Shown: piece by piece, positions 21,914 through 53,996 of the stretch | How the letters are laid out: every line of letters starts with the position of its first letter | Numbering within the stretch: position 1 is the stretch's first letter | NCBI GenBank assembly: GCA_965602015.1 | Contig: OZ271918.1 | Location: 256,001-320,000 of the forward strand | Reading direction: 5' to 3' | DNA from: Salinispira sp. | Lineage (GTDB): Bacteria > Spirochaetota > Spirochaetia > DSM-27196 > Salinispiraceae | DNA: 64,000 nt | Position numbers and translations under genes: made by a program | The notes under the pieces: model-generated | The model's input: only the letters and a program-made list of their open reading frames with translations | Told to the model about the DNA's origin: nothing | Databases searched by the model: none

Positions 21914-22057
21914 GTGCCCCCAAAACAGCTGATTTTATGACCGTAAAACAAGGTGTGAGAATGATGTACACGATTTTTGGCGATGAGCGAAATGAACGGC
22001 AGCTAATTCCTGTCCCGAAAAATGATTAGTCGGTTTAAATCAGCTGTTTTCGGGGCA
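21914..22057. mobile_element. Short TIR-bounded non-autonomous element, copy A; right TIR interrupted by IS110
   Basis: Left GTGCCCCCAAAACAGCTGAT (21914-21933); right ATCAGCTGTTTTCGGGGCA (22039-22057), continued by CTA at 23363-23365. Reconstructed length 145 bp. Confidence 0.85.
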
Positions 22058-22232
22058 TATCTGAAAGCGGTGCCTCCCCGCAAGAGTTTTCATTGTTCTA
22101 TTACAAAAATTCTGCAAATCGGTTTTGTCCGAGTCATATCTCCGCCATCCACGTGGCATGAAAATGTCCTTCCAGGGGTGTCGCAATCACTTTGCACAGC
22201 CTCGTATTCGCGCTGTAGCCCCAAAAACGCGC
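22058..22232 (-). ncRNA. Putative bridge/seek RNA of the IS1111-type element
   Basis: Non-coding region downstream of the transposase with segments matching target (UUUUUGGGGC; AAGUG) and donor junction (UUUCAUGCCA; AGAUAUGA) around short hairpins. Boundaries approximate. Confidence 0.75.
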
Positions 22233-23285
22233 TTACCCCTGTCTGGACAAACCCGCTAATGCAGGATCTTTGTAATGCTGTTCTTTCTGCAATATCCAAA
22301 ATATTGCTTCTGCTAAGTGCCGTGCCACGGCGATTATTGCAACCTTATGATTACGTTTAGTACGAACTCTCTTGTAGAGTTTTACCGTATGTCGGTTCGC
22401 CCAATTTCTTTGATTAAGACAGGTTACATTAGCTGCTTCAGTAAGTGCCCACTTCAAGTATCGATTACATGCTTTCGATGTTCGACCATAATGAGTTTTA
22501 CCTCCGCTCGAGTGAACGCGCGGCGTTGTACCACAGTATGATGCAAAATGTTCAGCGGTCTTAAAGCGATGTATGTCTCCAATTTCATGCACAATGACTG
22601 CGCTGAGAATAAATCCGATCCCGGGAATGTATTTCACCAACTTCATTTCAGCATTTTCATCAAACGCTTCATGCATTCGTTGTTCGCAGTCGGTGATAGA
22701 TTGCTTAATAAACGCGAGATTATCGAGCTTGAGTTTCATCATGGTGCGGGTATGCTCGGGGAGTTTTGGCATTACCTTCTTCATGGCTTCTGTACCTGCT
22801 TTTCCGAACAGATCGCTCACATCATTGAATCGAAACCCATATTTCTCGAACCCGGCATGAATTTGGTTCTTTTCACGTATCAACTCCTGAACGAACTGCA
22901 TCCGGGTTCGATAGAGTTCTCGTTTATCACGCAATTCTCCTGGTGGAATCCACACAGTAGGCAGTGTGCCTGCTTTTTGAAGTTTATTGAGACCTTCAGC
23001 ATCGAGTTTGTCAGTTTTGTTAAACATGGCCATCATCAATTTTGACTTACCGGCATGTACCAGCAAGGGGTTCATGCCGGCCTCCTCAATCTCATCCACA
23101 ATCCAGTACCAACTTCCGATTGTTTCAAGTGCGACTTCCTGTCCCGGCTCAAATTGTTGGAGAAAATCACGAATACACCCGTGAGAATGTTCTATGCGCT
23201 GTGAGGATTTCCTTCCTTTTTCGTCCTCAATTGCAGCCACGGTATACCGTTTATGGCTGTCGAGGGATATAATAATACTACTCAT
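22233..23285 (-). CDS. IS110-family DEDD transposase/recombinase
   Basis: SLDSHK (D), ALETIG (E), KTDKLDA (DD), IPGIG, FASYCGTTPRVHSSGG (catalytic Ser region), AIIAVARHL; GGAGGA RBS. Confidence 0.95.
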   Translation of the reverse strand: MSSIIISLDSHKRYTVAAIEDEKGRKSSQRIEHSHGCIRDFLQQFEPGQEVALETIGSWYWIVDEIEEAGMNPLLVHAGKSKLMMAMFNKTDKLDAEGLNKLQKAGTLPTVWIPPGELRDKRELYRTRMQFVQELIREKNQIHAGFEKYGFRFNDVSDLFGKAGTEAMKKVMPKLPEHTRTMMKLKLDNLAFIKQSITDCEQRMHEAFDENAEMKLVKYIPGIGFILSAVIVHEIGDIHRFKTAEHFASYCGTTPRVHSSGGKTHYGRTSKACNRYLKWALTEAANVTCLNQRNWANRHTVKLYKRVRTKRNHKVAIIAVARHLAEAIFWILQKEQHYKDPALAGLSRQG

Positions 23286-23367
23286 TTGGTTGTCCTCCTC
23301 CGGTATTTAATATAGACCCTGACTGGCAGGATCTCGGGGGAGGCACCGCTTTCATACCATCACTATG

Positions 23368-23877
23368 TTATTTATCCTCAAGATATTTGCGAACGTCGCT
23401 TTCCGTAGCGTTTAAGGGCCCGGAAGTGAGCATGGGAGGCGATTTGATGGATTCGGCGCTCATCATTGCGGCTATCCGCTGAAGCGCGGATATTAAGTGC
23501 ATTTTTTCCCACTCTTGGAGGGCTTCGAACTCCTCGGTAAAGTCTTCCTGCAGAAGATTCGGTGCGGCGTTGAGTATGGCAAGGGCATCTTCTGAAAGCA
23601 CAATGCTCACCTTACGCTTGTCCTCGCTACTGCGCACCCTCTGTACCATCTGCTGTTTTTCCAGGCGGTCGAGAATGCTGGTTACCGTCGCCTGGCTGAG
23701 GCTGATTTTTTTTGAAACTTCGCCGATGGTTTTGCTACTGTCCTTGTGTAGCTCTTTTAGCACCAGAAGTTGCGGTCCCGTGAGTCCGTACCGCTTCGCC
23801 AGGTCTCGGGAATGCAGGTCTATTGCGCGGATTATTTGCCTGAGGGTAGTCAATATGAGTTCGCTGTAATTTTCCAC
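23368..23877 (-). CDS. MarR-family regulator, EctR/CosR-like
   Basis: LRQIIRAIDLHSR...GLTGPQLLVL...SLSQATVTSILDRLE...DKRK; divergent from an osmolyte transporter. Confidence 0.85.
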   Translation of the reverse strand: MENYSELILTTLRQIIRAIDLHSRDLAKRYGLTGPQLLVLKELHKDSSKTIGEVSKKISLSQATVTSILDRLEKQQMVQRVRSSEDKRKVSIVLSEDALAILNAAPNLLQEDFTEEFEALQEWEKMHLISALQRIAAMMSAESIKSPPMLTSGPLNATESDVRKYLEDK

Positions 23878-24119
23878 CTATCGCCTCTTACCAGACTATA
23901 ATCATACAGCGCGTCAGCTGTCTACCGTTTGGATTATGTGAGCCCGCGGCGTTACAATGTTTTGCGGCCGTTGATCATACTTACAGATTTTTAGAGCCAT
24001 AATCGTAAGGCCGCTAAATTATTATTTTTCGAAATTCGGAAAAATATCGGGATATTTCCCGTATTAAGCCATGATTACTCCTGGTTTCTCGCTACCTACC
24101 TTGAATTTCCTTGTAAAAA

Positions 24120-24137
24120 TATTTAGATTACTAATAA
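24120..24137. promoter_or_regulatory. Candidate EctR-type operator
   Basis: TATTTAGA-TT-ACTAATAA pseudo-palindrome upstream of proX, resembling the EctR1 site TATTTAGT-GT-ACTATATA as recalled. Confidence 0.5.
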
Positions 24138-24164
24138 TTGATTACAAAAATCTTAGGAGAATTT

Positions 24165-25115
24165 ATGAAAAAGTCAGTGTTTACTGTACTGAGCTCTGTC
24201 GTGCTTCTGACAGTATTTCTATTATCATCGTGCCAGCCTGCTGATGATACCGAAACCCTCGTCTTTGGTGATCTTTCCTGGAATAGTGTCCAGGTTCATA
24301 ATAGGATCGCCTCTTTTATTATTGAGAACGGTATCGGCGGTTATGAAATAGAGTACGTGGCAGCGGACACTCTGGTGACCATCAACGGAATCATTCAGGG
24401 AGATATCGACGTAGATATGGAATCCTGGCACTCGAACTTCCCCGAAGTATATGCAGAAGGTGTGGAATCTGGCTCACTGGTGGATCTGGGCAAAAACATG
24501 CCCGATGCTCCCCAGGGCTGGTGGGTTCCCCGCTATCTGATCGAGGGTGATGACGCTCTTGCGCCGACCCTCCGTTCAGTCGCGGACCTGCCCCGCTATG
24601 CCGAACTGTTCACCGACCCGGAGGATCCCTCCAAGGGCATCGTATATATGGGTACCGCCGGCTGGTCGGCCACAACCATTTCCGAAGATATTTTTGCGGA
24701 GTACGAGCTCGACGATTATTTTAATCAGGGCGTTCCCGGCTCGGGAGCCGCATTGGCCGCCACCATGGTAGGGGCATATGAGCAGGGCGAACCCTGGGTC
24801 GGATATTACTGGGCGCCCACCGCTGTTCTCGGCCGGCTTGATATGGTGCGACTTGAAGGTTCTGAATTCGATCCTGCCGATGTAAATATCATCGTTAACG
24901 ATTCGGTTCTCGAGCGGGCTCCCGACGTCGTGGAATTCCTGCGGGAATACAGCACCAGTGTTGACGACAACAACGAGTTCCTCGCCGTTATGGAAGAAAA
25001 CGAATGGGATGCCGAGCAGACCGCCATCTGGTTCCTTGAGAACAAGGAAGATGTGTGGACCGCTTGGGTTTCCGACGAGGTCGCCGACCGGGTCCGCAGC
25101 GCACTTAACTCATAA
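24165..25115 (+). CDS. proX: Glycine betaine/proline ABC transporter substrate-binding lipoprotein
   Basis: Lipobox LSSC; LSWNS, DVDMESW, QGWWVP, VGYYWAP aromatic-cage motifs. Confidence 0.88.
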   Translation: MKKSVFTVLSSVVLLTVFLLSSCQPADDTETLVFGDLSWNSVQVHNRIASFIIENGIGGYEIEYVAADTLVTINGIIQGDIDVDMESWHSNFPEVYAEGVESGSLVDLGKNMPDAPQGWWVPRYLIEGDDALAPTLRSVADLPRYAELFTDPEDPSKGIVYMGTAGWSATTISEDIFAEYELDDYFNQGVPGSGAALAATMVGAYEQGEPWVGYYWAPTAVLGRLDMVRLEGSEFDPADVNIIVNDSVLERAPDVVEFLREYSTSVDDNNEFLAVMEENEWDAEQTAIWFLENKEDVWTAWVSDEVADRVRSALNS

Positions 25116-25125
25116 GGCGCGGACA

Positions 25126-26376
25126 ATGAGCGACGTTAAAACAGATACAGGGGCGCCTAGCGCCCCTTCTTCATTTATTGAGATACGGGATTTGTGGAAG
25201 GTATTCGGGCGGGATCCAAAAAGAATCCTCAGCGATAAATACCGCGACAAGGACAAGGACTTTATCCAGGAGAAAACCGGCTGCGTGGTCGGGATGAGGG
25301 AAGTTAACCTCGAGATAAAGAAAGGCGAGTTTTACATCATTATGGGATTGTCGGGCTCCGGCAAGTCCACCCTTATTCGCAATATCATCCGCCTGGTAAA
25401 TCCCACCTCCGGGAAAATCCTCATCGACGGTGATGATGTAACCGCAATGAATGAGGCCGAACTCCTCGATTTCCGACGTCACCGTTTTGGCATGGTTTTC
25501 CAGCACTACGGTCTAATGCCCCATTTGACGGTTCTTGACAACGCTGCGTACGGCCTGAAGGTCCGGGGTCTGCCCAAGGGCGAACAGCTGGCTAAGGCCA
25601 TGACATCATTGGAAACCGTCGGCCTCAAGGGGTGGGAGGATTATTATCCCGGCAGTCTCTCGGGAGGCATGCAGCAGCGGGTGGGAATTGCCCGGGCTCT
25701 CGCCAACGACCCCGACATCCTTTTAATGGACGAACCGTTCAGCGGCCTTGATCCCCTGATTCGACGGCAGATGCAGGATGAACTGGTTGAGCTACAGGAT
25801 CGACTGAAAAAAACGATTGTGTTTGTCACCCATGACCTTCACGAAGCCCTCAAGCTCGGAGACCGGATCGCCATCATGCGCAACGGCGAAACCGTGCAGA
25901 TTGGTACGCCTGAGGAAATCGTGACAAAGCCCGCAGACGACTACGTGCGGGATTTCGTCCAGGATGCCTCACCGGCCAAGGTGATTACCGCAGGCAGCAT
26001 TATGGACAGCCCAAAGGTTCTGCTCTACGCCTGGGAGGGCCATGCGACGGCCCTCACCATTCTTCAGCAGGAAAACCGGCCAGGCGCCTTCGTGGTCAAC
26101 AAGGAAGGGAAGTTGCTGGGCGCAGCCAACCGCGAACGCCTGCAAAAGTACCTCGATGACCCTGACAGCGACAAAAGCGCCAAGCTCGCTTCCCCGGTGG
26201 TGAGGGAAATACCGACGGTCAGCGAAGACACGGTTTTGGAAGACCTATTCAGTATGGTCTCGAAACATCCCTACCCCGTGCCGGTTGTGAATGAAAAGGG
26301 CAAGCTGTTGGGCATCGTAAAAACCGATGATATTTTCGAAACCATCAGTCCTATGGGAGGTGAAGATAATGTTTGA
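25126..26376 (+). CDS. proV: Glycine betaine ABC transporter ATPase with CBS domains
   Basis: MGLSGSGKST, LSGGMQQRVG, LLMDEPFSGLDPLIRRQMQDEL; C-terminal CBS pair. Confidence 0.92.
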   Translation: MSDVKTDTGAPSAPSSFIEIRDLWKVFGRDPKRILSDKYRDKDKDFIQEKTGCVVGMREVNLEIKKGEFYIIMGLSGSGKSTLIRNIIRLVNPTSGKILIDGDDVTAMNEAELLDFRRHRFGMVFQHYGLMPHLTVLDNAAYGLKVRGLPKGEQLAKAMTSLETVGLKGWEDYYPGSLSGGMQQRVGIARALANDPDILLMDEPFSGLDPLIRRQMQDELVELQDRLKKTIVFVTHDLHEALKLGDRIAIMRNGETVQIGTPEEIVTKPADDYVRDFVQDASPAKVITAGSIMDSPKVLLYAWEGHATALTILQQENRPGAFVVNKEGKLLGAANRERLQKYLDDPDSDKSAKLASPVVREIPTVSEDTVLEDLFSMVSKHPYPVPVVNEKGKLLGIVKTDDIFETISPMGGEDNV

Positions 26377-27247
26377 GTTTCCGGAAGTAATCCGCCTTCC
26401 CCTACGCGACGGAATCGATGCAATCATGAGCTGGCTTCTACAGAATCTTGATGGCTTCTTCGATGCCATCGGCTGGGTCATCCTGCAGGTCATGAATCTC
26501 TTTGAGGCGATCTTTACAACGATTCCCTGGTTCATCCTGATAATTGCGGTGTTTTTCGCAGCATGGAAGATGATGAAGACCCTTCGTACCGCCATCGTCC
26601 TGTCGTTGATGCTTCTATTAATCGGTACTTTCGGGTATTGGGAAATGGCCATGCAGACCCTCGCGCTGGTTTCCGCAGCGGTTCTCTTTTCGCTGCTCAT
26701 TGGGGTACCCACGGGCATCGCCATGGCCCAGAGCGACCGCGCAGAATCTGTCATTAAACCCATGTTGGACGGTATGCAGACCATGCCGAGTTTCGTCTAT
26801 CTAATCCCGGCACTGATGTTTTTCGGCCTTGGGAAGGTTCCTGCCATCATCGCTACCATAATCTATGCAGTGCCGCCGGTTATTCGGCTCACCAATGTCG
26901 GTATCCGAACCGTGGACCGAGAAGTGGTTGAAGCCGCCAAGGCCTTTGGAGCGGAGAAAAAGCAGGTCCTGTGGGATGTGCAACTGCCACTCGCCCGACC
27001 GTCAATCATGGTCGGCATCAATCAAACGACCATGATGGCTCTCGCCATGGTGGTAATCGGCTCTATGATCGGCGCACGCGGACTCGGTATGGAAGTTCTT
27101 TTATCCATCAACCGCATTGAAGTCGGACGGGGCTTCGAAGCAGGTCTGAGCATTGTGTTTCTGGCCATCGTCATCGACCGACTCACCTTTGCAATATCCA
27201 AAACCGGCAATAAAACCGGCAACAAAAACAGCGGCAGAGAGAGTTAA
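26369..27247 (+). CDS. proW: Glycine betaine ABC transporter permease
   Basis: LDGMQTMPSFVYLIP, EAAKAFGA, GINQTTMMALAMVVIGSMIGA. Confidence 0.92.
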   Translation: MFEFPEVIRLPLRDGIDAIMSWLLQNLDGFFDAIGWVILQVMNLFEAIFTTIPWFILIIAVFFAAWKMMKTLRTAIVLSLMLLLIGTFGYWEMAMQTLALVSAAVLFSLLIGVPTGIAMAQSDRAESVIKPMLDGMQTMPSFVYLIPALMFFGLGKVPAIIATIIYAVPPVIRLTNVGIRTVDREVVEAAKAFGAEKKQVLWDVQLPLARPSIMVGINQTTMMALAMVVIGSMIGARGLGMEVLLSINRIEVGRGFEAGLSIVFLAIVIDRLTFAISKTGNKTGNKNSGRES

Positions 27248-27271
27248 TCCGGCGTTGCTGTTACCACCTAC

Positions 27272-27305
27272 AACCGCCCTCCGGTTCCGGAGCGGCGGTT
27301 TTTTT
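27272..27305 (+). terminator. Rho-independent terminator
   Basis: AACCGCC-CTCCGG-TT-CCGGAG-C-GGCGGTT followed by a T-run. Confidence 0.8.
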
Positions 27306-27479
27306 AGTATACGGCGATCCGACGCTTGCGCGATCCCTCGAGTTTTTCTATGCTTTTCCCAGCTTGTAATACCATGGAACCGCTAAATGTCGCCAATTGC
27401 CCCATCCACGCCCCGGGATCGGATATTGATAGAGTATTTACGCGGTACAACGTCGTTGGTACGAAGATCAGAGAGCAAA

Positions 27480-27519
27480 ATCAGCTGTTTTGGGGGCACG
27501 CCAGTTTTGGGGCACGCCA
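27480..27519. repeat. Solo TIR of the repeat family plus a tandem partial duplicate
   Basis: ATCAGCTGTTTTGGGGGCAC (27480-27499, perfect); GTTTTGGGG(G)CACGCCA at 27487-27503 and 27504-27519. Confidence 0.85.
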
Positions 27520-27539
27520 CGAGTACACAGGAGTCTGCA

Positions 27540-28613
27540 TTGGGAAAGGAAGTCAGGGCGGTAGATGCGCGATATTTGGAAAAGATCCAGAGAAAACTGC
27601 AGAGGAGAATGCAATCAGGCAGCTTCAAGGTTCATCTCACTGCCTTTTTAGGTGTTAACGGCCTGCTCTTCCTCACCTGGCTGCTCACTCCGGGTATTCA
27701 TCCCTGGTTTCTCTATCCTGCCGGAGCCTGGGGTATTGGCCTGGCCCACCATTTTACCTCCCGCCTCAATCTAAAGAGAAGTTGGGAGGTCTTTTCGAAG
27801 CTGCCAAATCTCTCGAAGCCGACGGTGAAAAAAGTCAGGGCTATTCTGGCTAACCGCGGTGCCTTCAGGCAGCACGCCACCGCCGTGCTCGCCACTTCCG
27901 GTTTTCTGGGGATGATCAATGCCATTACCACTCCCTTTGGTTTTCAATGGTGGTTAATTCCCGGCGCAGCCATGGGAATGGGGCTGCTGATTCATCACAG
28001 CGCTGCCAGCCACCGGCGAAGAATAATGGAAATGGAACTTAAAGAACTCGAACAGGGAGCGGGAATCCCCGAGCTGATGACGCTGCCGGGGAGCGGGCAG
28101 GATACAGATGAAGCCCGGCGTCTGGTAGATGCCATCAGCGCTCAAATACGTTCCCGACCAGAGAGCTTTCCCGTCGACAGTGAGATGATTCTTTCCGATC
28201 TTCAGCGTTACCTCAAAGGCTACGATGATCTGGGTATTCGCAGAGATGAGCTGAGGAGCCTGTTAACAAGTCACTCAATAGACGCTCTCAGGCAGGAGCG
28301 CCGCGAGCTTCAGGCCAGCCTCGAAGAACAACCGCCTTCCGAAATCGCCGCGGAATACCGCCGGGGTATAGAAGCCCTGGAAAAACAGCTATCGACCCTG
28401 GAGGACCTTGCCGGGAAGCTGGAGGTGATCGAGTTGCAGCGCAGGACGCTCATCAATTCCTTGAGGCAAATACATCTCGACATTACCCGCTATCAGAGTA
28501 AAACCATCGACAAGCATCTTCCGGATATCCAGAAAGTGCACCGGGGACTTGATGACATATCGCGCTACCTGGAGGATTTTGAGAACAGTTACCGGGAAAT
28601 ATCAAAGTCCTGA
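27540..28613 (+). CDS. Membrane protein with two 2TM-like repeats and C-terminal coiled coil
   Basis: Two FxxHxxxxL...PWF/WW...GxGLxxH units; AGGAG RBS before TTG 27540 (the ORF-track start 27387 runs through the repeat). Confidence 0.65.
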   Translation: MGKEVRAVDARYLEKIQRKLQRRMQSGSFKVHLTAFLGVNGLLFLTWLLTPGIHPWFLYPAGAWGIGLAHHFTSRLNLKRSWEVFSKLPNLSKPTVKKVRAILANRGAFRQHATAVLATSGFLGMINAITTPFGFQWWLIPGAAMGMGLLIHHSAASHRRRIMEMELKELEQGAGIPELMTLPGSGQDTDEARRLVDAISAQIRSRPESFPVDSEMILSDLQRYLKGYDDLGIRRDELRSLLTSHSIDALRQERRELQASLEEQPPSEIAAEYRRGIEALEKQLSTLEDLAGKLEVIELQRRTLINSLRQIHLDITRYQSKTIDKHLPDIQKVHRGLDDISRYLEDFENSYREISKS

Positions 28614-28647
28614 TTCGCGCTGTGGATTTTTAGAGTCTTGGTGCTGG

Positions 28648-29754
28648 CTAAGGTATAAGGACGATTTTTCCTACATGCTCCCGCTGAAGCAGTAGCTTCT
28701 GCGCACTGACAATCTGCTCCAAGGGTAATGTGGCGCATACCCTGGGACGGATCTCCTCCGATTCGATATACCCGACAAGATTGGGAAAGACTTCCGGATC
28801 CCATGCGGTGGTGCCGATAATGCGAAGGTCCTTAAGGTAGATGTCCCGCAGATCGCTTTGCACTAGCGGTCCGGCTATTGCACCCGAACTGACCATTCGC
28901 CCGCCCCGTCGCAGCAGCATAGTGTTTTTTTCAAATTCCGGGCCCCCGACGTTGTCGACGATCAGGTCGGCGGTCTCGCTTCCAAGGATTTCGAGGAGGT
29001 CTTCATTCCTGCTGATTACCCGGTGGGCTCCGAGGGACCGGACTGATTCAATTTTACCAGGACTGGTGACTGCCACCACCCTGGCGTTGCGGCGCAGTGC
29101 CAGGCTAATGGCCGCAGAACCAACACCGCCGGAAGCACCTTTGATGATAACCGTTTCTCCTGCCCGGGGTCCCGCCCGGTGAAGCATGTTTTCCGCGGTC
29201 CCCCAGGCACAAGGCATGGCGCCTAATTCTTCATTGCTGAATGAAGAATCCACCGGAAAAACTTCGCTTGTCGGAGCCAGCACATATTCGGCAAAGGCGC
29301 CGTCAAAATCCGAACCCATCCATACGGTAACCTGAGAATCAAACCCGCGGCTGCGCATGCAGGATCTGACAAGAACTCGGTCGCCAACGCGAGGCTGTCG
29401 GCGGCCTGGGCTGGTCGGGGTTGGGCTCCGGCTGTGCTCATCCGATGCTTTAAAGCCCGAATAGATATCTACCACTTCTCCGCAGCAATCTGTCCCCTGG
29501 ATGAAGGGAAAGGGCGTAGGGGCGGACCAGCCGCCGTCCGCCGGGGCTCCTTTCTGCCTACTCTTCCCGTTTTCATCGGTTCCCGAGGAAACCTGGGAAG
29601 AGTACCAGCCGAGGCGGGTATTGATTTCCGTATTGTTGACCCCCGCAGCCAGCACGCGAATCAGCGTCGTACCGGGAAGGAGACGGGGAACCGGCACATC
29701 CCGGTACTCCAGCTTGTCAAATCCGCCGCCTTCCCGGGTTACCACTGCCTTCAT
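28648..29754 (-). CDS. MDR-family alcohol dehydrogenase / quinone oxidoreductase
   Basis: MKAVV...AAGVNNTE...PFIQGTDCCG...DGAFAEY...GASGGVGSAA...GKIVL. Confidence 0.88.
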   Translation of the reverse strand: MKAVVTREGGGFDKLEYRDVPVPRLLPGTTLIRVLAAGVNNTEINTRLGWYSSQVSSGTDENGKSRQKGAPADGGWSAPTPFPFIQGTDCCGEVVDIYSGFKASDEHSRSPTPTSPGRRQPRVGDRVLVRSCMRSRGFDSQVTVWMGSDFDGAFAEYVLAPTSEVFPVDSSFSNEELGAMPCAWGTAENMLHRAGPRAGETVIIKGASGGVGSAAISLALRRNARVVAVTSPGKIESVRSLGAHRVISRNEDLLEILGSETADLIVDNVGGPEFEKNTMLLRRGGRMVSSGAIAGPLVQSDLRDIYLKDLRIIGTTAWDPEVFPNLVGYIESEEIRPRVCATLPLEQIVSAQKLLLQREHVGKIVLIP

Positions 29755-29815
29755 TATCTCACCCTGACCTGCCTCAAACCGTCGGGGATCCGGGGGCAGG
29801 GCGAGGGGAAAGTCT

Positions 29816-34400: not shown

Positions 34401-34403
34401 GCG

Positions 34404-35144: not shown

Positions 35145-35155
35145 TCGGAGGAGAC

Positions 35156-40070: not shown

Positions 40071-40119
40071 GTATCGTATTCTGACCTGATTTACGCCCTC
40101 TTGCAATGACGCGATGGTA

Positions 40120-40264
40120 GTGCCCCCAAAACAGCTGATTTGTGCGGTGTAACTCTTTGTGTGAAAATAAAAAAGTGGAGTTTTATCAAGGGCTTCAATG
40201 GATGACAGATAAATTACATCATGAAAAGGGATTACGCTGTTTAAATCAGCTGTTTTGGGGGCAC
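40120..40264. mobile_element. Short TIR-bounded non-autonomous element, copy B (145 bp)
   Basis: Perfect TIRs GTGCCCCCAAAACAGCTGATTT / AAATCAGCTGTTTTGGGGGCAC; flanks GTA / TAC. Confidence 0.9.
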
Positions 40265-40302
40265 TACAAACTGCTTTACAGCCGGCGCCCTCAGGCCATA
40301 GG

Positions 40303-45412: not shown

Positions 45413-45452
45413 GCTCAAACCTCTGCAGAAAACCTATGGTGGGCGAAATATA

Positions 45453-45598
45453 GTGCCCCCAAAACAGCTGATTTAAACTCCCTAATTATTGCTCTTGCAA
45501 AAATGTACAAGCGAACCAACATATGAACGTTCGGCTCATTACATTATTTCTTTACATGATAGTATTTGCACCATCCCCATCAGCTGTTTTGGGGGCAC
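45453..45598. mobile_element. Short TIR-bounded non-autonomous element, copy C (146 bp, opposite orientation to A and B)
   Basis: Perfect 20-bp TIRs flanked by TA on both sides; the TTTAAAC-bearing end is on the left. Confidence 0.9.
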
Positions 45599-45635
45599 TA
45601 AGTAAAGTCTAAGCTATTGAAATAAGTTTTGACCA

Positions 45636-46331: not shown

Positions 46332-47125
46332 TAGAATTCTCCTGTGAATAAACCGCGTTTGCGGTAATAGCGTTTGAGCGCACCCTCGAGGATGCCATAC
46401 AGCGTTACGGGGATGGTGATAAAAATAAGGATTAATGCTGCGCTAATGGTCCAATCCGATGCCCGTATGAGGGGAACCAGATATCCGGAGTATGACGGTA
46501 CCAGTCCGCCTCCGATTAAGAATACCAGGAAGTACTCGGTGAAGGCTACTAAAAACACAACCATGCCGCCTGAGAGAAGAGCCGGAAGAAGCTGTGGTAT
46601 ATGCACGCTGACAATCCGCTTGAGGCTTCCCGCTCCCAGCATGGCGGCGCAGTTTTCCAAATCTTCCGTGTATGAAAGAAATCCTGAATATAAAGCGCGA
46701 AACATGTAGGGAAAGGAGCTGAGGCTGAGCACCAGTACAACCCCAAAAAAACTGTCGCTGATCCCCGCTCGAAGAAATAGTGGATAGAGGCCTAATGCGA
46801 ATACCACAGCCGGCACCAGGAGCGGGGCGAGAATCATGAGCTCGATGATATCCTTTCCCCGCAGATCTCTTCGGGCCAGCACGTGAGCCGCAGGCATGCT
46901 GATAAGTGTGCAGAGGAAAACCGTTGCCCCACTGTAGGAAACCGATGAAATCAAACTCCTGACGAGGGGCCGGCGATTGTCCGCCATGAATTCAAGAGCC
47001 CTGAAGCTCAACTGACGGGGAAGCAGTTCGGGAAAAGCCCACAGTCCGCTGATACTCCTGATAATTAGGTAAATAGGAGGAATAAGTGAGAGAATGATAA
47101 AAATCACCCTCCATCCGGTTTTCAT
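46331..47125 (-). CDS. ABC transporter permease (YnjC-like, C-terminal half)
   Basis: WAFPELLP, EAA-like LENCAAMLGA, EYFLVFLIGGG; start ATG 47125. Confidence 0.82.
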   Translation of the reverse strand: MKTGWRVIFIILSLIPPIYLIIRSISGLWAFPELLPRQLSFRALEFMADNRRPLVRSLISSVSYSGATVFLCTLISMPAAHVLARRDLRGKDIIELMILAPLLVPAVVFALGLYPLFLRAGISDSFFGVVLVLSLSSFPYMFRALYSGFLSYTEDLENCAAMLGAGSLKRIVSVHIPQLLPALLSGGMVVFLVAFTEYFLVFLIGGGLVPSYSGYLVPLIRASDWTISAALILIFITIPVTLYGILEGALKRYYRKRGLFTGEF

Positions 47126-47979
47126 CGGTGGCCTCCTGAGCTCCCGCGCATAATGTCCCCGAGGCCTCGGCGCAGGACGGCGAAGATTACCAGAATTATC
47201 AGAGAAACCACCCATACAAGAAGCAAAAGCAGAAGGGCCTGAGGGCGTTGGGAAAGGCTTCCTTCGAAGAACAGACGGTATGCCCGGATTGATGCCATCG
47301 GTCTTGATGTTGAGCCGAGCAGGAAAGGTATATCGAATGAACCGAAGGAATACAGAAAAATTATCAGTCCAGAAACTGCGAGGTTTGAGCTGATGGCAGG
47401 CAGAATTACCGTGGTAAAGCGTCTGAGCGAACCTGCGCCAAGGATTTTTGCCGTGGTTAGCAAACGGCGGTCCAGTTTGCGCAGCGATGCAAGGACCATC
47501 AGCGTGACGAAGGCACTTTCTTTGTAAATATAGGCGAGGATAATGCCGGTACCTCTTTGATCGAATACCAGTACCGGAAAACTGTCGAGGGTTTGTGTGA
47601 TTCCGACATGGAATAGAAAGCTGGAGATCAATCCGCTTTGGGAAAAAAAAGCGATTACAAAAAATGCCGCGACAATATGCGGAATGATCAACGGGAAGGT
47701 ATACAAATACACCGGGAAGGTCCGAGGCTGCTGCCAGAGCCAGAGAGCAAGGCCGCCGCCCAACAGCAATGATATGGCCGTCGAGACTGCGGCGATTTCC
47801 AGGGAGTACCACAGGGAGGCAAAAGCCTCGGAACCAGCTTCCGAGAGTACTTCTGTTCCTGAGGAAAGGAGACTAATGCCCGCGTAAGCCGCACCGGCAA
47901 ACAACACCAAAACCGATGCCGTTAGTGCCGGTATTAGCGCAAGCAGGGAGGCCTCCTGTGACTTAGTTCCCCAGGACAT
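47122..47979 (-). CDS. ABC transporter permease
   Basis: PLIIPHIVAAF, AKILGAG, SFGSFDIPFLLG. Confidence 0.85.
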   Translation of the reverse strand: MSWGTKSQEASLLALIPALTASVLVLFAGAAYAGISLLSSGTEVLSEAGSEAFASLWYSLEIAAVSTAISLLLGGGLALWLWQQPRTFPVYLYTFPLIIPHIVAAFFVIAFFSQSGLISSFLFHVGITQTLDSFPVLVFDQRGTGIILAYIYKESAFVTLMVLASLRKLDRRLLTTAKILGAGSLRRFTTVILPAISSNLAVSGLIIFLYSFGSFDIPFLLGSTSRPMASIRAYRLFFEGSLSQRPQALLLLLLVWVVSLIILVIFAVLRRGLGDIMRGSSGGHR

Positions 47980-49201
47980 GCTCCTCCCAGCCCTGTTCTA
48001 GCGCTTCAAGATACTCGGAGGAAATCTCCGGTACCGCATTGGCGCTTAGCACATCAAGAGCCAGGGTCGCATCACCCAAATCAAGGGCGGCGAAGCGCTC
48101 GGCGTCTTCCCTGGGAAGCCGCCCGATATCCAATACGGTAAAATCGCCCCAGTTTGCCGGATCGTTTTTGGATAGCTGCAGCTCGGGACCGATGATTTCA
48201 TTAATGGCTACCAGGGCCCCGGCCTTGTTTGGAGAGTTGAACGGGATTGCGAGGTAGTGGGTATTTGATAAACTGGCATTTTGAAAAACGAAGGTTCTCA
48301 CGCTTTCGGGATAGCGGCCTTGAGTGATTTTGCTTGCTGCGCCGGTCTGGGTGAAGGTCATGTTAAAACTCACCTCGCCCCGTTCGAAAAGACCGTCAAG
48401 CTGTGCCAAATCCGCCGGATATGTTTGACCTTCCCGCCAAAGATAGGGTTCCAGTTCATTGAGATATTCCCAGAGCCTGGGAGCATTTGCCTCAAAAAGA
48501 GCGGGATCAAAATCTCCGGCATACTGTTCATGGCCACCGGTAAGCTCATAAAAAGCCTGCCTGATAAAGGCTGAACCGGTAAAATCCGGCGGCTGAGGAT
48601 ACGTCATCCGGCCCGGGTTTTCCCTGACCCACTCGAGTAACTCAGCATAGCTGCTCGGGGGATCAGCGATCACCGCCGAATCATATTCCATAACGAACTG
48701 CGCTCTACCGTAAGGGGCTTCCCAGCCGTCCACCGGGAACCCTGCATCGCTCACCGCGGTTGCCGGATCGACGAATGCGTTGAAGTTCGGGAGCCTATCG
48801 GTGAAGGGTCCGAATAAGATCTCTCCCTCCCTGGCGTTTTTAAAATTTTCACCGTTGATCCATAAAATATCCATCACGCCTTGATTACGTCCTGCCTCTC
48901 TCTCAGTCAAAAGGCGGTTCACAAAAACAGATGCGTCCATCGGGACCCGGGTGAGGGTGATATCGTGCTCGTCCTTCAAATGTTGGGCCATTTCGGTGTC
49001 CACCCAATCATTAATAAGCGGTGAACCACCCCACATGTAAAATCGAACCTCAGTGCCTCGGGCTTGCTCGATGATGGACGAGAAATCAGATTCGAGTAGG
49101 TTGGATTCATCACCTGAGCCGTTGTTCCCGCAGGCGGAAAACAGAATAAGCACAGTAAATAGTAGCAGAACGGCTGATGCCGCAGGCCCGGGTTTGTTCA
49201 T
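47963..49201 (-). CDS. ABC transporter substrate-binding lipoprotein (YnjB-like)
   Basis: Lipobox FSAC; FYMWGG, DILWINGENF, TYPQPPDFTG, NTHYLAIPFN. Confidence 0.85.
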   Translation of the reverse strand: MNKPGPAASAVLLLFTVLILFSACGNNGSGDESNLLESDFSSIIEQARGTEVRFYMWGGSPLINDWVDTEMAQHLKDEHDITLTRVPMDASVFVNRLLTEREAGRNQGVMDILWINGENFKNAREGEILFGPFTDRLPNFNAFVDPATAVSDAGFPVDGWEAPYGRAQFVMEYDSAVIADPPSSYAELLEWVRENPGRMTYPQPPDFTGSAFIRQAFYELTGGHEQYAGDFDPALFEANAPRLWEYLNELEPYLWREGQTYPADLAQLDGLFERGEVSFNMTFTQTGAASKITQGRYPESVRTFVFQNASLSNTHYLAIPFNSPNKAGALVAINEIIGPELQLSKNDPANWGDFTVLDIGRLPREDAERFAALDLGDATLALDVLSANAVPEISSEYLEALEQGWEEHVLGN

Positions 49202-49204
49202 TGT

Positions 49205-50293
49205 TTACTCCTTTCCGCCCGATGCGGAAGTCTTCTTTTGATTGTCGTTAAGGGTGTCGCCCGGAGCATCCGAGGCCCCCTCTTGATCGACATATACGTG
49301 ATCATAAATTTTCACCTGGACTCGTTGACCAGGTTGTAAATTGCAGTTGAGCCTAAATACCTCAAGCGGCAGACCATTGAGGTCAATATTCATTCGTATG
49401 AGGCTTCCCTGAAAACGACGGGAAGTTATGAAGGCGGGGCCGTTTTCGCTGGGAAGCAGATCGATGGCTTCTGCTCTGACGAGAATATCCAATTCTACAG
49501 GAGTCTTTCCGTCGAAGCTGCAGTATTTTATGTAGTTTCGGGGAATAATATTCACCGGTCCGAGAAAGTTTCCAACCCTGTGATCCGCAGGGAAGCGGTA
49601 GAGGGTTTCAACATCAGCCTGCTGCCCAATCTCGCCGTCAAGAAGCACGGCAATTCGGTCGCTCATTGCAAAGGCTTCAGGAAGATCGTGGGTTACCGCC
49701 AAGGTAGTGACGCCATATTCTTCCTGTATGTTCCGAATAAACAAAGCGGTTTCCATTTTGAGATTTTGATCAAGATTTGCAAATGGCTCATCCAGAAGAA
49801 GAAGGGATGGCTTGAGGATCATTGCCCGTGCGAGGGCTACCCGTTGGCGTTGCCCGGCGGACAGCTGTCGCGGGTACTTTTTCTGAAGACCTTCCAGGCC
49901 GAAATGGGTGATGTGGTCAGCCACCTCTTTACTTATGGCATGAGCTCGTGCTTTTCTGCTTCGATTCTCCGCAAAGGACGGAAAACGTCGCGCAAAATTG
50001 CTCCTGTTGTGAAGGCCGTAGGCGATGTTCTGGTTTACCGTGAGCTGGGGAAACAGAAGAAAATCCTGAAAGACCATGATCACCGGAGACCAGGTTTCCT
50101 TTTCAGGCAGCCAGGTTATTTCTCCGCCGTCCGATGAGTCCAGTCCGGCGATGATTCGCAACAAGGTTGTTTTTCCCGCACCAGATGGTCCTACAACGCT
50201 GAGAAACTCACCCTGGCGAATATCCATGGAAAGATTACGAAGAACAGGCCATTCCCCAAAGGCCTTTTTGAGATCTTTAATCCTGACTTCCAT
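49205..50293 (-). CDS. ABC transporter ATP-binding protein
   Basis: GPSGAGKT, LSAGQRQR, LLLDEPF. Confidence 0.92.
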   Translation of the reverse strand: MEVRIKDLKKAFGEWPVLRNLSMDIRQGEFLSVVGPSGAGKTTLLRIIAGLDSSDGGEITWLPEKETWSPVIMVFQDFLLFPQLTVNQNIAYGLHNRSNFARRFPSFAENRSRKARAHAISKEVADHITHFGLEGLQKKYPRQLSAGQRQRVALARAMILKPSLLLLDEPFANLDQNLKMETALFIRNIQEEYGVTTLAVTHDLPEAFAMSDRIAVLLDGEIGQQADVETLYRFPADHRVGNFLGPVNIIPRNYIKYCSFDGKTPVELDILVRAEAIDLLPSENGPAFITSRRFQGSLIRMNIDLNGLPLEVFRLNCNLQPGQRVQVKIYDHVYVDQEGASDAPGDTLNDNQKKTSASGGKE

Positions 50294-50342
50294 GAACACC
50301 CTTTAAGCTTGCTAATTTCCCGGCTAATATTATATTGCTGAT

Positions 50343-51185
50343 ATGGACAGTCAAGCAATAATCCGGTTGGCAGTTTTCGCTGCGGTATTCACTATACTCT
50401 CGATTCTCGAATTATTGTTTCCTGACCGCAATCCAGTCCACGCCCGTAAACAGCGTTGGCCGGGAAATATCCTCGTAATCCTCTGCGGAAATCTCTTGGT
50501 ACGCGTGTTAGGTCCATTATTGCCGTATACAGTGGCGGTCGCTATGCAACAGCACGGATGGGGACTTTCGGCATTTGCTCCGGGATGGCTCAGCATCATT
50601 ATCACGGTGATAGTGCTCGATGGATGGATATATCTTCAGCATGTGCTGTTTCATCAGGTGAAGCTTTTACGGCCCCTGCACCGCATGCATCACAGCGATA
50701 CCCATATTGATTTTACCACCGGCTTTCGCATGCACCCAGGTGAGATAGTTATCAGTGCGCTATACAAAACAGCTTTGATAGCCGCGCTCGGTTTGAGCGC
50801 TACCGGGGTTTTGGTTTTTGAGCTCATCCTCAATGCCTCATCTATGTACACCCATGCGAATATCCGCTTAGGCCCAAAGCTCGACCGAACTCTCCGGATG
50901 CTCTTGATCACACCGGACGTTCACAGGATACATCACTCGCAAAAAATTGACGAACGAAACAGCAATTACGGCTTTTTCCTGAGTATTTGGGATCGGATAT
51001 TCGCAACCTATTCACGTGTTGAAGAACATGATCCCAGGGGCATTAACGTTGGTCTGCCTGGGTATGATGATGTTAGGGTTAATCGAATCGATTGGCTCCT
51101 GTTGGAACCGGTGGTTCCAGCACCGCGAAAAATTGGGAAACCCCTGCAAAGCCGCCAAACAATGTCCGGAGACAGGAATGTTTGA
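50343..51185 (+). CDS. Sterol desaturase / fatty-acid hydroxylase family protein
   Basis: His boxes HVLFH, HRMHHSD, HRIHHS; NSNYG...WDRIF. Confidence 0.9.
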   Translation: MDSQAIIRLAVFAAVFTILSILELLFPDRNPVHARKQRWPGNILVILCGNLLVRVLGPLLPYTVAVAMQQHGWGLSAFAPGWLSIIITVIVLDGWIYLQHVLFHQVKLLRPLHRMHHSDTHIDFTTGFRMHPGEIVISALYKTALIAALGLSATGVLVFELILNASSMYTHANIRLGPKLDRTLRMLLITPDVHRIHHSQKIDERNSNYGFFLSIWDRIFATYSRVEEHDPRGINVGLPGYDDVRVNRIDWLLLEPVVPAPRKIGKPLQSRQTMSGDRNV

Positions 51186-51912
51186 TATTGAACTGCGTAA
51201 CATCAAGGACAGGCTGCTCAACCCAGTCGCCAACGCAGTTTCGAAGTTCGCCAGTCCGACCGCAGTGTCCATCACCGGATTCGCATTCGGTGTAGCATCC
51301 CTCTATGCTCTCGGGTCAGGAATGCCAGTCTTAGCCCTGATCCTTTGGTATGCTAACCGGATATTGGACGGGCTGGACGGGGCGGTAGCGAGGGTTTCGG
51401 GACGCACCACCGATGCGGGAGGATTTCTCGATATTACCCTCGATTTTGTCCTGTACGCCGCATTTCCCATCGTTTTGGCCATCGTCGGTATGCGGGCAAG
51501 AGCCGAACTGCCGGTAAACGGACTGCTCGCATTTACATCCCAGTTACCGTGGTTGGATTCAGCGGCTCCCGGTATAAGAGAACTGATTCCTGCAGCTCTT
51601 CTTCTTGCATCATTCTATGTAAACGCCGCCGTGTGGATGACCGCCTCAGCGCTCTTTGAAAAAAGACGGCAGAATCAGACGATTGAAAATACCGGAAGAA
51701 TCACCAGCATGAAAATGCCGAGATCGCTGGTTGAAGGATTTGAAACTATCGTGTTCTTCAGCCTGATGATCGTCCTGCCCCGATTTTTTGCAGAACTTGC
51801 GCTAACTATGACCATACTGGTTATCGTTGGCTTTGTGGTTCGCGGATTGCACACGTACAGAACCTTAAAAATCTCCCAAGTAAATACAGAATCACCAAGG
51901 AGTAAGACATGA
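51178..51912 (+). CDS. CDP-alcohol phosphatidyltransferase (YnjF-like)
   Basis: DGLDGAVAR...GGFLDITLD; LVEGFET. Confidence 0.88.
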   Translation: MFDIELRNIKDRLLNPVANAVSKFASPTAVSITGFAFGVASLYALGSGMPVLALILWYANRILDGLDGAVARVSGRTTDAGGFLDITLDFVLYAAFPIVLAIVGMRARAELPVNGLLAFTSQLPWLDSAAPGIRELIPAALLLASFYVNAAVWMTASALFEKRRQNQTIENTGRITSMKMPRSLVEGFETIVFFSLMIVLPRFFAELALTMTILVIVGFVVRGLHTYRTLKISQVNTESPRSKT

Positions 51913-52745
51913 ATAACCGCCTGTTTCAAACATTAACGATTGCTTTTTTTCTGGCAGTTGTGCTATCTGCCAGCCTCTGGGCCGGCGGCGAAGCCGAACT
52001 GTGGGACCGCTGGATTCTTTCAGATGAGTCCAGCGAAGAAGTGCTTGATCACGGCCCTTGGGGAGATTTCCTCAGCAAGTATCGCTATGTCGGTGAAAAT
52101 GGGGTGGCGCTCATTCGATATGATGAAGTAAGCGCAGATGATCTCAGAAGCCTCGATACCTATGTAGATTATTTACAAGCTGTGGAGGTTGATACCCTCA
52201 ATTCCCGTGAACAATACGCATTTTGGGTGAATCTCTACAACGCGGCGACTATACAGTTGATACTCAGGGAATACCCCGTAACAAGCATCCGCCGAATCTC
52301 CGGGGCCCGAATTACCAGTCCTGGTCCATGGGATCTAAAGCTGCTGCAGGTTGCCGGGGAAGAACTCAGCCTCGACGATATCGAACACCGGATCCTGCGT
52401 CCCCGCTGGAAGGATCCACGAGTGCATTTCGTCGTAAACTGCGCAAGCATCGGATGTCCTGATGTCCCTCCCGTCCCCCTGACCGCTGAAAATCAAGACC
52501 GTTTGATGGAAGAAGGTGCTCGGATATACCTCAACCATCCGCGAGGTATCAAGGCTGACGGCAGGCGGCTTGTCATTAGCTCGATCTTCGATTGGTTTTC
52601 TGTAGATTTTGGTGAGAACGAGGCTGATATTCTGGATTTCATCGATGAATACCGCGATGTCGATCAGCTATTATCCGGTATTGGGAGAAGTCGGGAGAAT
52701 GTTGCTATCCGTTATGATTACGACTGGTCATTGAATTATGAATGA
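51909..52745 (+). CDS. DUF547 exported protein
   Basis: AFWVNLYNA, SLDDIEHRILR, DPRVHFVVNCASIGCP, SSIFDWF, YDWSLN. Confidence 0.9.
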   Translation: MNNRLFQTLTIAFFLAVVLSASLWAGGEAELWDRWILSDESSEEVLDHGPWGDFLSKYRYVGENGVALIRYDEVSADDLRSLDTYVDYLQAVEVDTLNSREQYAFWVNLYNAATIQLILREYPVTSIRRISGARITSPGPWDLKLLQVAGEELSLDDIEHRILRPRWKDPRVHFVVNCASIGCPDVPPVPLTAENQDRLMEEGARIYLNHPRGIKADGRRLVISSIFDWFSVDFGENEADILDFIDEYRDVDQLLSGIGRSRENVAIRYDYDWSLNYE

Positions 52746-52746
52746 A

Positions 52747-53996
52747 GTGTCCCCAAAACAGCTGATCGAATCAACATAACTCTTTTGCCAGTAGTCTTCT
52801 ATGACACGATTACCAGTTCATAGGAGATTAGCATGGCATTAATCCCTCGTTTCTGTCCGTACTCGGACTGTTCTCAGCATCATCGCGACAGAGAATCAAG
52901 CCGGTGCTGGTTTGTCCGAAACGGCCACTATCACTGCCGCCGCCTCGGTTCTTCCCAGCGCTATCGCTGCAAGCATTGCCGTCGATACTTCTGCGAAAGC
53001 GCGTTCCACCTCGATTATCGCGCACATCATCGCCTCGATTACCGGCGCATCTTCTCTTCAATCAACTCGGCCTCCGGCATTCGCGATATTGCCCGGGAGT
53101 TTTATGTCACCGACAAGGTCATTCTCAATCGGCTGAGCCGATTGTCCCGTCAGGCAATCGCTGCCATGGCCCAGTTATCGAATGATCATACAATCGATGA
53201 GGATATTGCCGTTGATGGGTTTGAAAGCTTTGTGTACAGCCAATACTGGCCAAACAATTTCACTCTCGCGGTAGGTTCCGACAGCCAGGTTGTCTATGCG
53301 TGCGACTATGCACAGATGCGGCGCAAAGGGCGGATGACCCCCGCACAAAAGCGCCGGCGCGATGAGCTCAATCGCCGGTATCCTATTGCAGGGGGACAAA
53401 TTGCGCGATCTTTCCGGGATGTGATAAACACCATTCTTCCCCGGTGGAAGGCTTATTCATCTAAGAAGCCATGCTATCTCTTGAGCGATGAAAAACTCGA
53501 ATACCGCCGTGAGCTCTGCGCTCACCGGGACTGGGCGGCGTTGGAAAATGCAGGGCGGGTTATCCATCACCGAACCTCATCGAGGGTGGTCAGGACCACT
53601 GAAAACCCGCTGTTTCCTGTGAATTACCTGGATCGGGAGATACGAAAGGATCAATCCTGTCATGTCCGCCAGAGTGTCCAATGGTCAAAATCGGTGAACA
53701 ACAGCATGGAGCGGATGATGATCTACATCGCCTATCATAACCTGCTCAAGCCGTATCGGATAAACGGACGTAACGATATCAGCCATGGTGAGGTTGCCGG
53801 GTTTGACCGAAGGCGGGTACTCACGTTGGCAAAAAGGATGTTTACACAGCGGGCCTTCGTTCATCATCTGGTGTTGGACATCAGCCAATGGAAGACCTGG
53901 CACCGGATCTGGAAGACACCGGTGAGTGCGCTGAAGATCGATCTACCCGATTATGCGGTGGCCTGAGGAGCGGGAAATCAGCTGTTTTGGGGGCAC
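52747..53996 (+). mobile_element. 1250-bp transposase-encoding member of the TIR family (IS1-like)
   Basis: GTGTCCCCAAAACAGCTGAT (52747-52766) / ATCAGCTGTTTTGGGGGCAC (53977-53996) enclose a single ORF; no flanking direct repeat. Confidence 0.88.
52833..53966 (+). CDS. IS1-like single-ORF transposase (Zn ribbon, HTH, RNase H fold)
   Basis: CPYSDC...NG...QRYRCKHC (InsA-like Zn ribbon), GIRDIAREF HTH, AVDGFE and LSDEK acidic motifs, VNYLDREIR...WSKS...YHN; AGGAG RBS. Confidence 0.75.
   Translation: MALIPRFCPYSDCSQHHRDRESSRCWFVRNGHYHCRRLGSSQRYRCKHCRRYFCESAFHLDYRAHHRLDYRRIFSSINSASGIRDIAREFYVTDKVILNRLSRLSRQAIAAMAQLSNDHTIDEDIAVDGFESFVYSQYWPNNFTLAVGSDSQVVYACDYAQMRRKGRMTPAQKRRRDELNRRYPIAGGQIARSFRDVINTILPRWKAYSSKKPCYLLSDEKLEYRRELCAHRDWAALENAGRVIHHRTSSRVVRTTENPLFPVNYLDREIRKDQSCHVRQSVQWSKSVNNSMERMMIYIAYHNLLKPYRINGRNDISHGEVAGFDRRRVLTLAKRMFTQRAFVHHLVLDISQWKTWHRIWKTPVSALKIDLPDYAVA

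Follow-up and report, generated by a model that had tools for sequence, protein, structure and literature searches.

The Correia/NEMIS element of Neisseria, 155 bp long, has terminal inverted repeats (TIRs), lies between genes and carries a site that binds IHF in vitro and has been suggested to aid transposition (PMC2229807), and QMITE1 of Coxiella is a miniature transposable element with inverted repeats (MITE) with an IHF site (PMC5896051). In BIME-1 (RIB) of E. coli an IHF site is flanked by a pair of REPs in inverted orientation (PMC3333891), one end of Tn10 is folded by IHF within the transpososome (PMC3159471), and in the REPIN/RAYT partnership the RAYTs are single-copy, non-jumping HUH enzymes (10.1101/2021.07.10.451892). 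We analyzed a dispersed repeat in a stretch of 64,000 nucleotides from Salinispira sp. (contig OZ271918.1, positions 256,001 to 320,000; hereafter the window), which an original prediction from the letters alone had read as a REPIN/RAYT-like partnership, with one enzyme and many short elements with conserved ends. The repeat is almost certainly an IS1-like insertion sequence (IS) together with its MITEs, and the length of the MITEs and the two boxes inside them would seem to reflect folding by the host DNA-bending protein Hbb, a reading to which we assign a probability of roughly 65% on comparative sequence evidence.

Inventory of the Repeat

The repeat has a 20-mer core that matches nine times in the window (0.01 expected by chance), at the places predicted, and the inverted pairs, the solo end at 27480 and a transposase open reading frame (ORF) bounded by 20-mers are likewise as described. 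Seven of the nine cores are exact and the one at 52747 has one mismatch, so that a ceiling of one substitution per copy holds for eight of the nine but fails for 22039-22058, where one of two mismatches was contributed by the IS1111-type element interrupting this end. By our own gene calls, all five window elements lie between genes, again as predicted, and many lie near stop codons. The stretch is covered by four contig sets of one sample, at about tenfold depth over the IS; this sample is probably the source of the DNA itself and so does not confirm it independently.

The genome analyzed (G000, one contig of 3.87 Mb) has 127 core sites (at most 3 mismatches), which resolve into 45 inverted pairs and 37 unpaired sites. 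The pairs comprise 11 long elements of 1248-1250 bp, 30 short ones (143-147 bp in 29 cases and 135 bp in the other) and 4 tiny ones of 44-49 bp; among the unpaired sites is the right end of a further, twelfth long copy that has lost one base of its left core. The 30 short elements of 135-147 bp share the core with the autonomous IS, and the prediction of many short elements with conserved ends and divergent middles was thus borne out. In the comparison genome G001, labeled Salinispira and of the same genus, there are 96 core sites and a transposase 61% identical.

The tiny elements lie at G000 201918-201961, 400646-400689, 2681482-2681525 and 2356763-2356811. Three of the four are 44-bp perfect or near-perfect palindromes, two cores joined at TTTAAA, two are flanked by duplications at 7-8/9, and the 49-bp one resembles the right end of the IS; they probably collapsed in place. 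Just two of the 127 sites (one IS) fall in 0.84 Mb at about 1.43-2.27 Mb of G000, a sparse stretch that starts at the GC-skew switch opposite dnaA (3.33 Mb).

Element Ends and Mobility

The 20-mer marks a real repeat but not, as had been supposed, the boundary of the element. Offset grids place the true ends 4 bp further out, with 9-bp target duplications there, and rule out both the absence of any duplication and a TA duplication at the edge of the 20-mer. At an offset of 4/4 in G000, six of the 45 elements have an 8/9 duplication (0.05 expected) and four have one at 7/9 (0.6 expected), with 9/9 in none; one further element has a perfect 8-bp repeat. In G001, perfect duplications flank 4 of 25 short elements and four more have 7-8/9; seven G001 MITE sites correspond to empty sites in G000. 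An analysis of ends across the family covered the 47 of 67 loci that could be anchored, and found a perfect duplication at the same offset in six and 7-8/9 in none. Sibling MITEs carry the same terminal bases by inheritance, which makes these bases part of the element and rules out the terminal 4 nt as target bases. Ends shared with the IS, together with the 9-bp duplications, identify the short elements as MITEs, and the shared ends and equal size and offset of the duplications suggest that they are moved in trans by the cognate transposase.

Across the 47 family loci, no constraint is seen at terminal positions 1-3; the TG at positions 6-7 is kept and a GG is not. Target duplications of IS1 are 8-9 bp long. 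The end pattern of IS1 and IS6 is GGnnnTG, and long IS6-type elements also lack the GG (PMC6807381).

Weighing against the IS and MITE reading, 35 of the 45 G000 elements have no 9-bp duplication at 7/9 or better. Adjacent deletion, known to remove duplications in IS6 elements (PMC6807381), may be a cause of their absence in this family. Reshuffling of duplications between elements by rearrangement was rejected, as one perfect and three near matches to a non-partner among 127 ends do not exceed neighboring offsets. Insertion sites are mostly species-specific: none of the 25 G001 MITEs and one of the 35 unpaired G001 ends lie at the same base as a G000 site.

In two other genomes (L297, L306 and L312-L324; G289, G295) the target 9-mers are often like CAA-N3-TTG, which suggests a preference for palindromic targets in these lineages.

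A Symmetric Box in Divergent Interiors

We compared the interiors of 55 short elements, 30 from G000 and 25 from G001. They fall into 32 clusters with a mean interior identity of 37.5%, and the best pair between the two species reaches 45%; arm identity is 0.337 within elements and 0.332 between them. BLAST of all 55 against the IS interior gave a single 11-bp hit at E<0.05, so the short elements are not simple internal deletions of the IS, as had been predicted.

The arms nevertheless carry a dyad box, YAA-N4-TT-N7-AA-N4-TTR, at positions 31-55 (center 43). It scores at least 7 of 10 at position 31 in 52 of 64 arms (32 lineages), compared with 2% after shuffling, a score that is not independent, as the 10-position pattern was written after the alignment had been viewed. 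The TAACTCTTT motif noted earlier in copy B is indeed present there, but it belongs to this 25-bp box, found in most MITE arms and in the left end of the IS. In every one of the 12 left ends it scores 8, at the position it has in the arms, compared with 3 in the window copy's right end. Within MITEs the box centers are 59-62 bp apart. There is no covariation inside the boxes (395 observed versus 410 permuted, p=0.87), which favors a double-stranded protein site over a hairpin. Folding of the interiors gave mean z-scores of -0.7 and -0.3, no support for hairpins, and Rfam gave no match. These results, with the lack of a consistent terminator hairpin at unpaired ends, led us to reject a whole-element hairpin, a box hairpin and terminators. 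The base after the TT of the box is G in only 13 of 64 arms, nothing is conserved at the inward -10, and a promoter scan of MITE B found no promoter-like site within it. The features of the window are as follows.

21910..22057, + strand: MITE A, interrupted by the IS1111-type element, 153 bp when whole
21910-21913, 21914-21933 and 22039-22057, + strand: terminal 4 nt, core and right core of MITE A
21944..21968, + strand: left box of MITE A, likely Hbb site, 7/10 positions
22004..22028, - strand: right box of MITE A, likely Hbb site, 9/10 positions
22058..23360, - strand: IS110-family, IS1111-type element at the TG core of the TIR, ORF 22233-23285
23361..23367, + strand: displaced outer tip of the right end of MITE A, duplicated core plus terminal bases
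27480..27503, - strand: solo end, perfect core plus 4 terminal nt, with neither partner nor MITE-like interior
40116..40268, + strand: MITE B, 153 bp, cores 40120-40139 and 40245-40264, target duplication not recognizable
40150..40174, + strand: left box of MITE B, likely Hbb site, 8/10
40210..40234, - strand: right box of MITE B, likely Hbb site, 8/10
45449..45602, + strand: MITE C, 154 bp, cores 45453-45472 and 45579-45598
45483..45507, + strand: left box of MITE C, likely Hbb site, 8/10
45544..45568, - strand: right box of MITE C, likely Hbb site, 8/10
52743..54000, + strand: IS1-like element, autonomous, one of 12 copies, 1258 bp, with cores at 52747-52766 and 53977-53996
52777..52801, + strand: left-end box of the IS, 8/10, positioned as in the MITE arms; right end 3/10
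52833..53966, + strand: single-ORF transposase, 377 aa, with Cys/His-rich N-terminus, helix-turn-helix (HTH) and RNase H-fold core

A 96%-identical sibling of MITE C, at G000 210877, shares its terminal bases and is flanked by an 8/9 target duplication. At window positions 27500-27520, immediately beyond the solo end, the outer half of the core is repeated in slightly shortened form, a partial tandem duplication. The tip of the IS at 52743-52745 provides the TGA stop of the upstream DUF547 gene, and element tips overlap the end of the adjoining gene call by 1-5 nt at about 12 sites.

Similar Miniatures in Other Genomes

We searched 99 genomes of the order with loose paired-end patterns. Beyond G000 and G001 there were 38 hits; six were dropped, with arms less than 16/20 alike, leaving 32 elements with other TIRs in 11 other genomes. 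Their box score, which is independent of the alignment behind the pattern, also peaks at position 31 (5.5; 5.0 over the 11 lineages; 2.7-2.8 when shuffled), and their target duplications lie at the same offset as in G000. The box and layout thus recur across spirochaete genomes with different TIRs. Lengths elsewhere are 144-148, 154-155, 166-169 and 189 bp, two Salinispira-labeled genomes add 135 and 168 bp beside 143-147 bp, and there is no true pair at 100-129 bp. The lengths fit a 10.5-bp ladder (14 lineage lengths, R=0.68, p=0.0003; six classes, p=0.02), although the lineages are related and the six-class test includes the borderline G275 (arms 15/20 alike), which takes weight from the phasing.

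In G290 and G292 an IS of the family has the same TIR as the MITEs, with left ends scoring 8-9 in G290; such sharing was not demonstrated at the 11 other IS loci checked. MITE swarms are patchy across the 99 genomes. When the TIRs of five other family members were used to look for short pairs, none turned up in G002 or G014, nor in five genomes searched with the G039 end or five with the G040 end. A looser pattern afterwards found other families, including in G002, G027 and G032. The complete genome G002 has a lone 147-bp element (L303, G002:C1 2185568-2185714) with a variant core, identical arms and boxes of 5 and 7 out of 10; no other site lies within 2 mismatches of its core and no matching IS end was found there.

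A Probable Link to Hbb

The right half of the box equals the AA-N4-TTR end of the IHF consensus WATCAANNNNTTR (PMC5896051). The bend induced by IHF approaches 180 degrees, with kinks at a TT and an AA step, and Hbb likewise introduces a pair of symmetric kinks (10.1101/2025.09.08.674847). G000 has one HU/IHF-family gene of about 100 aa, plus an HU/IHF-like domain in a longer protein (G000 53556-53834, the C-terminus of a protein of about 270 aa). The best natural single-domain PDB hit of the ~100-aa protein is Borrelia Hbb (2NP2, E=3.5e-24); a homodimer of such a protein would read a symmetric site. The two kinks of IHF are 9 bp apart, and the box, with its AA-N4-TTR, has TT and AA steps at that spacing.

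For an independent test, a matrix trained on MITE arms alone was scored over up to 250 nt upstream of rpsT-hbb in 11 genomes. It reached 14.9-18.0 in 5 of the 11 (G000, G001, G002, G005 and G014), three of them outside the training set (shuffle p<=0.007; a score of 15 is reached by 1% of 1458 control regions). This conserved box is a candidate site of Hbb autoregulation. In Borrelia, the regions bound by Hbb include the one upstream of hbb and the dnaA-dnaN gap, and a candidate Hbb site at p66 is close to a palindrome (PMC2811001). In G000 the gap upstream of dnaA has a site at 13.0, a score reached by 2.9% of control regions.

A number of observations weigh against folding by Hbb. Six of the 11 rpsT-hbb regions have no strong site in the scored window (one has a 15.0 site just beyond it), and where found, the site overlaps a TTGACA hexamer (G000 1902088-1902120; L284, L285, L287, L293). 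No site in the dnaA-dnaN gap of G000 reaches a score of 11. The box does not match the WATC half of the E. coli consensus (0.52, 0.2, 0.2, 0.19), and Hbb has been called non-specific and AT-preferring (10.1101/2025.09.08.674847). Over the first 1.2 Mb the pattern shows no enrichment (91, versus 88, 61 and 81 for altered-spacing controls), and among the 55 of 67 loci covered, the left ends of most ISs of the family have no box at a fixed place. Arm scores of only 1-5, on one side or both, occur in the 166-169 bp class, G271 and G295, and one arm is weak in several elements that are longer or GC-rich.

The Transposase and Its Family

Each of the 12 G000 transposase copies has an intact 377-codon frame inside its own TIRs. 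The copies are 95-97% identical to the window copy, with a ratio of nonsynonymous to synonymous differences (pN/pS) of 0.10 and a mean pS of 0.11, and have recombined heavily (1220 of 2628 site pairs incompatible). This leaves no room for the "one enzyme" of the original prediction, since RAYTs are single-copy and do not jump. Single copy number and vertical inheritance had been named as signs of domestication; with 12 copies the first does not apply to this enzyme, and insertion sites are mostly species-specific. A single-copy domesticated enzyme is ruled out.

The NCBIfam IS1 model NF033558 matches residues 40-154 (E=9e-9) with 35.5 bits, short of its cut-off of 100. In Pfam the window transposase has no match, PF03400, PF12762 and PF13610 have zero matches in G000, and a PDB sequence search found no relative. 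A structure model with a mean confidence (pLDDT) of 92 resembles integrase and transposase RNase H cores (Z 11.5-11.6, root-mean-square deviation 3.2-3.5 over about 153 residues), in line with the predicted IS1-like DDE fold. The N-terminal half aligns to IS1595 proteins (89% probability); a comparison set meant as "IS6-like" turned out to hold IS3/IS481-like proteins. D128 and D219 are invariant in 87 of 87 homologues, and the third catalytic residue would be N264 (86 of 87) or D267 (85 of 87); in a weak alignment with one IS1 protein (E=0.43), the IS1 catalytic Glu falls on N264, with D267 one turn later. The zinc-ribbon, HTH and DDE-fold architecture of the IS1 family is present. The transposase is IS1-like: it resembles IS1 in its working but fails curated tests of IS1 membership. 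The likeness to IS1 and IS1595 extends to the TG at TIR positions 6-7 and the 9-bp duplications, and the differences from IS1 to the absent terminal GG and the single 377-aa ORF.

Relatives are nearly all labeled Spirochaetota, the closest Salinispira. At E<=1e-30 the family comprises 572 representatives; of the 41 genomes searched, 22 have matches. Metagenome scans found no relative of the transposase and returned five stretches, all outside this family, and a plasmid search gave no match. The original prediction did not recognize a described family; the literature searched holds no description of it, although it may be listed in ISfinder or TnCentral, and the accessible text of PMC10969869 does not mention "spirochet", "Treponema" or "Leptospira". 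The prediction had also named a contrary outcome, a described IS/MITE pair with many near-identical copies; an IS with MITEs was found, but its copies are not near-identical and the literature searched does not describe the family.

At G000 2757339-2760654 a second, distant member (34%) is interrupted by roughly 2.2 kb, within which lies a DnaA/IstB-like ATPase match that occurs in four copies. Ten copies of another member in G014 (L080-L089) are 94.5-98% alike and vary strongly at several outer-TIR positions; no perfect duplication was seen around them.

Core Conservation and Unpaired Ends

A two-allele consensus is matched exactly by 117 of the 127 cores, including 33 of the 37 unpaired. Ten G000 elements with eroded duplications (14/90 mismatches) have 0/360 core mismatches, where about 28 would be expected; eight elements in other genomes, chosen by pattern so that some bias remains, have 10/72 and 1/192. 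Errors at insertion are a possible cause of the duplication mismatches, a cause made less probable by the six duplications around autonomous family copies, which are all perfect. Alleles agree between the two ends of an element (28/33, p=9e-5, siblings not being independent), so conversion could explain part of the core conservation. Unpaired ends between tandem genes have an orientation bias of 16:2, which could arise from which deletions are tolerated, and show no consistent terminator hairpin. The one G001 end at the same base as a G000 site coincides with a MITE end there and has a G001-type allele.

We infer, less firmly, that the core of a resident copy stays intact for a long time after it has inserted, maintained by conversion between ends, by host selection or by both. 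Of the REPIN/RAYT-like partnership, then, a REPIN-like persistence survives in the intact cores and the one shared end, whereas 12 mobile DDE copies and 9-bp duplications do not fit it. On long vertical persistence the signs are mixed: G001 has the same family and one shared end, and cores are conserved in place, but most sites are species-specific and the swarms patchy.

An IS1111-Type Passenger

The element at window 22058-23360 matches the IS110 model NF033542 with 223 bits (cut-off 140) and has sub-terminal inverted repeats of the IS1111 type at about 22062-22079 and 23337-23354. Ten G000 copies, about 99% identical, are all inserted at a TG core within AGTG, and seven of the ten sit in TIRs of the IS1-like family. 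The non-coding region, 22058-22232, lies downstream of the ORF; its start matches the bottom strand of the target for 8 nt, and a short top-strand match follows beyond a hairpin. A bottom-strand segment, a hairpin and a top-strand segment are the layout of a guide RNA, and the region is a candidate to hold such guide segments. IS4321 and IS5075 target the repeats of Tn21. IS1111 targets a MITE, QMITE2, in Coxiella (PMC5896051). The passenger shares with both this insertion at a fixed point in the end of another element, and differs in its target, the TIR of the IS1-like family and its MITEs.

At G000 3399670-3402534 two copies separated by about 255 bp share a left flank of 30 nt, which suggests a local duplication, and the copy at G000 1706985-1709280 is interrupted by about 1 kb.

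Discussion

In the mechanism that we propose, the transposase would bind the 20-bp core and cut 4 bp outside it, ignoring the last three bases. An element of about 150 bp would be too stiff to synapse its ends unaided; Hbb would bend the DNA at the two boxes and so bring the ends together for the transposase. Miniatures made of two left ends, with their bend sites in helical phase, would then be preferentially copied in trans. Since stiffness would let only phased, two-bend miniatures be copied, length and box would become fixed, with selection on cores, boxes and helical phase alone and the rest of the interior free to drift. A closed loop and an S-shaped fold are both compatible with the 59-62 bp between boxes, and the spacing alone cannot tell them apart.

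These could instead be ordinary MITEs with two left ends whose box is read by some factor other than Hbb (a second, loose transposase site, another dimeric regulator or a promoter relic), with length following from it. The box stands at the same position in the left end of the IS, so descent alone could seed it, its dyad shape would suit any dimeric protein, and the best site outside MITEs overlaps a -35 hexamer. A transposase site, however, would be expected to vary as the TIR does across transposase lineages, and the box does not; it also marks a host promoter in genomes with no detected MITE swarm. A promoter relic agrees poorly with the scarcity of G after the TT, the unconserved inward -10 and the lack of a promoter-like site in MITE B. 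Taken together, we consider a reader other than Hbb unlikely. Still less probable are elements whose form is set at the RNA level, their interiors or paired ends acting as hairpins (terminators, RNase III sites or small RNAs). Their intergenic places, often near stop codons, the 20-bp stem that paired ends could form and the three 44-bp palindromes would suit such a role, but the absence of box covariation, the equal arm identities, the weak folding, the lack of an Rfam match and of a consistent terminator hairpin at unpaired ends make it very improbable.

The clean cores beside eroded duplications, the mostly perfect unpaired cores, their biased orientation and the end shared with G001 would also be expected of a domesticated system like REPIN/RAYT or BIME-1, in which the host keeps Hbb-bent sites as structural or regulatory elements and the transposase mainly serves them. 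The lone G002 element, whose arms are identical and for which no matching IS end was found, and the IHF site of BIME-1 point the same way. Twelve mobile copies with TIRs, the near absence of sites shared between G000 and G001 and the patchy swarms speak against it, and conversion and tolerated deletions may account for part of the core conservation and for the orientation bias; full domestication is accordingly improbable, though less so than the RNA-level alternative.

Returning to folding by Hbb, comparison with described systems helps to place it. The MITEs are like Correia/NEMIS and QMITE1 in their size of about 155 bp, TIRs, intergenic position and IHF-type site. In those elements, as far as the accessible sources go, there is one site in conserved sequence, whereas here there are two boxes in at least 32 lineages about 33% alike, and the boxes recur with unrelated TIRs and stepped lengths. 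REPIN/RAYT systems share the conserved inverted ends, variable spacer, extragenic location and perhaps long persistence, but here the enzyme has a DDE fold and 12 jumping copies, there are 9-bp duplications and the ends are not short hairpins. BIME-1 is similar in its IHF site between two inverted REPs. As in Tn10/IS10, a host bender would fold a transposon end, and the IS has its box at one end only; the transposase family is another, and the miniatures are boxed at both ends. What is new here is an architecture of two phased boxes free of interior sequence, together with free terminal bases and conserved resident cores.

It is possible, as a tentative extension, that these elements form a Spirochaetales-wide class of MITEs defined by geometry instead of sequence (two ends, two Hbb U-turns and a helix-quantized length) and served by an undescribed IS1-like group with Asn/Asp in place of Glu and no regard for its three terminal bases. 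Their cores may be kept by the host, making them a DDE counterpart of BIME-1 part-way to domestication, and their 100-plus arms may be a selection experiment run by nature from which the binding code of Hbb can be read.

The family is large, has no Pfam model and breaks one rule of IS1, the terminal GG, and apparently a second, the third catalytic Glu. The conservation of its cores bears on how MITEs may be converted into REPIN-like residents. IHF sites in MITEs were known before, in the accessible sources, as single sites in conserved sequence; interiors that are randomized while boxes and stepped lengths are kept offer comparative evidence that a host bender sets the form of a miniature transposon. 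A candidate binding motif is also gained for Hbb, whose specificity has been described inconsistently (PMC2811001; 10.1101/2025.09.08.674847).

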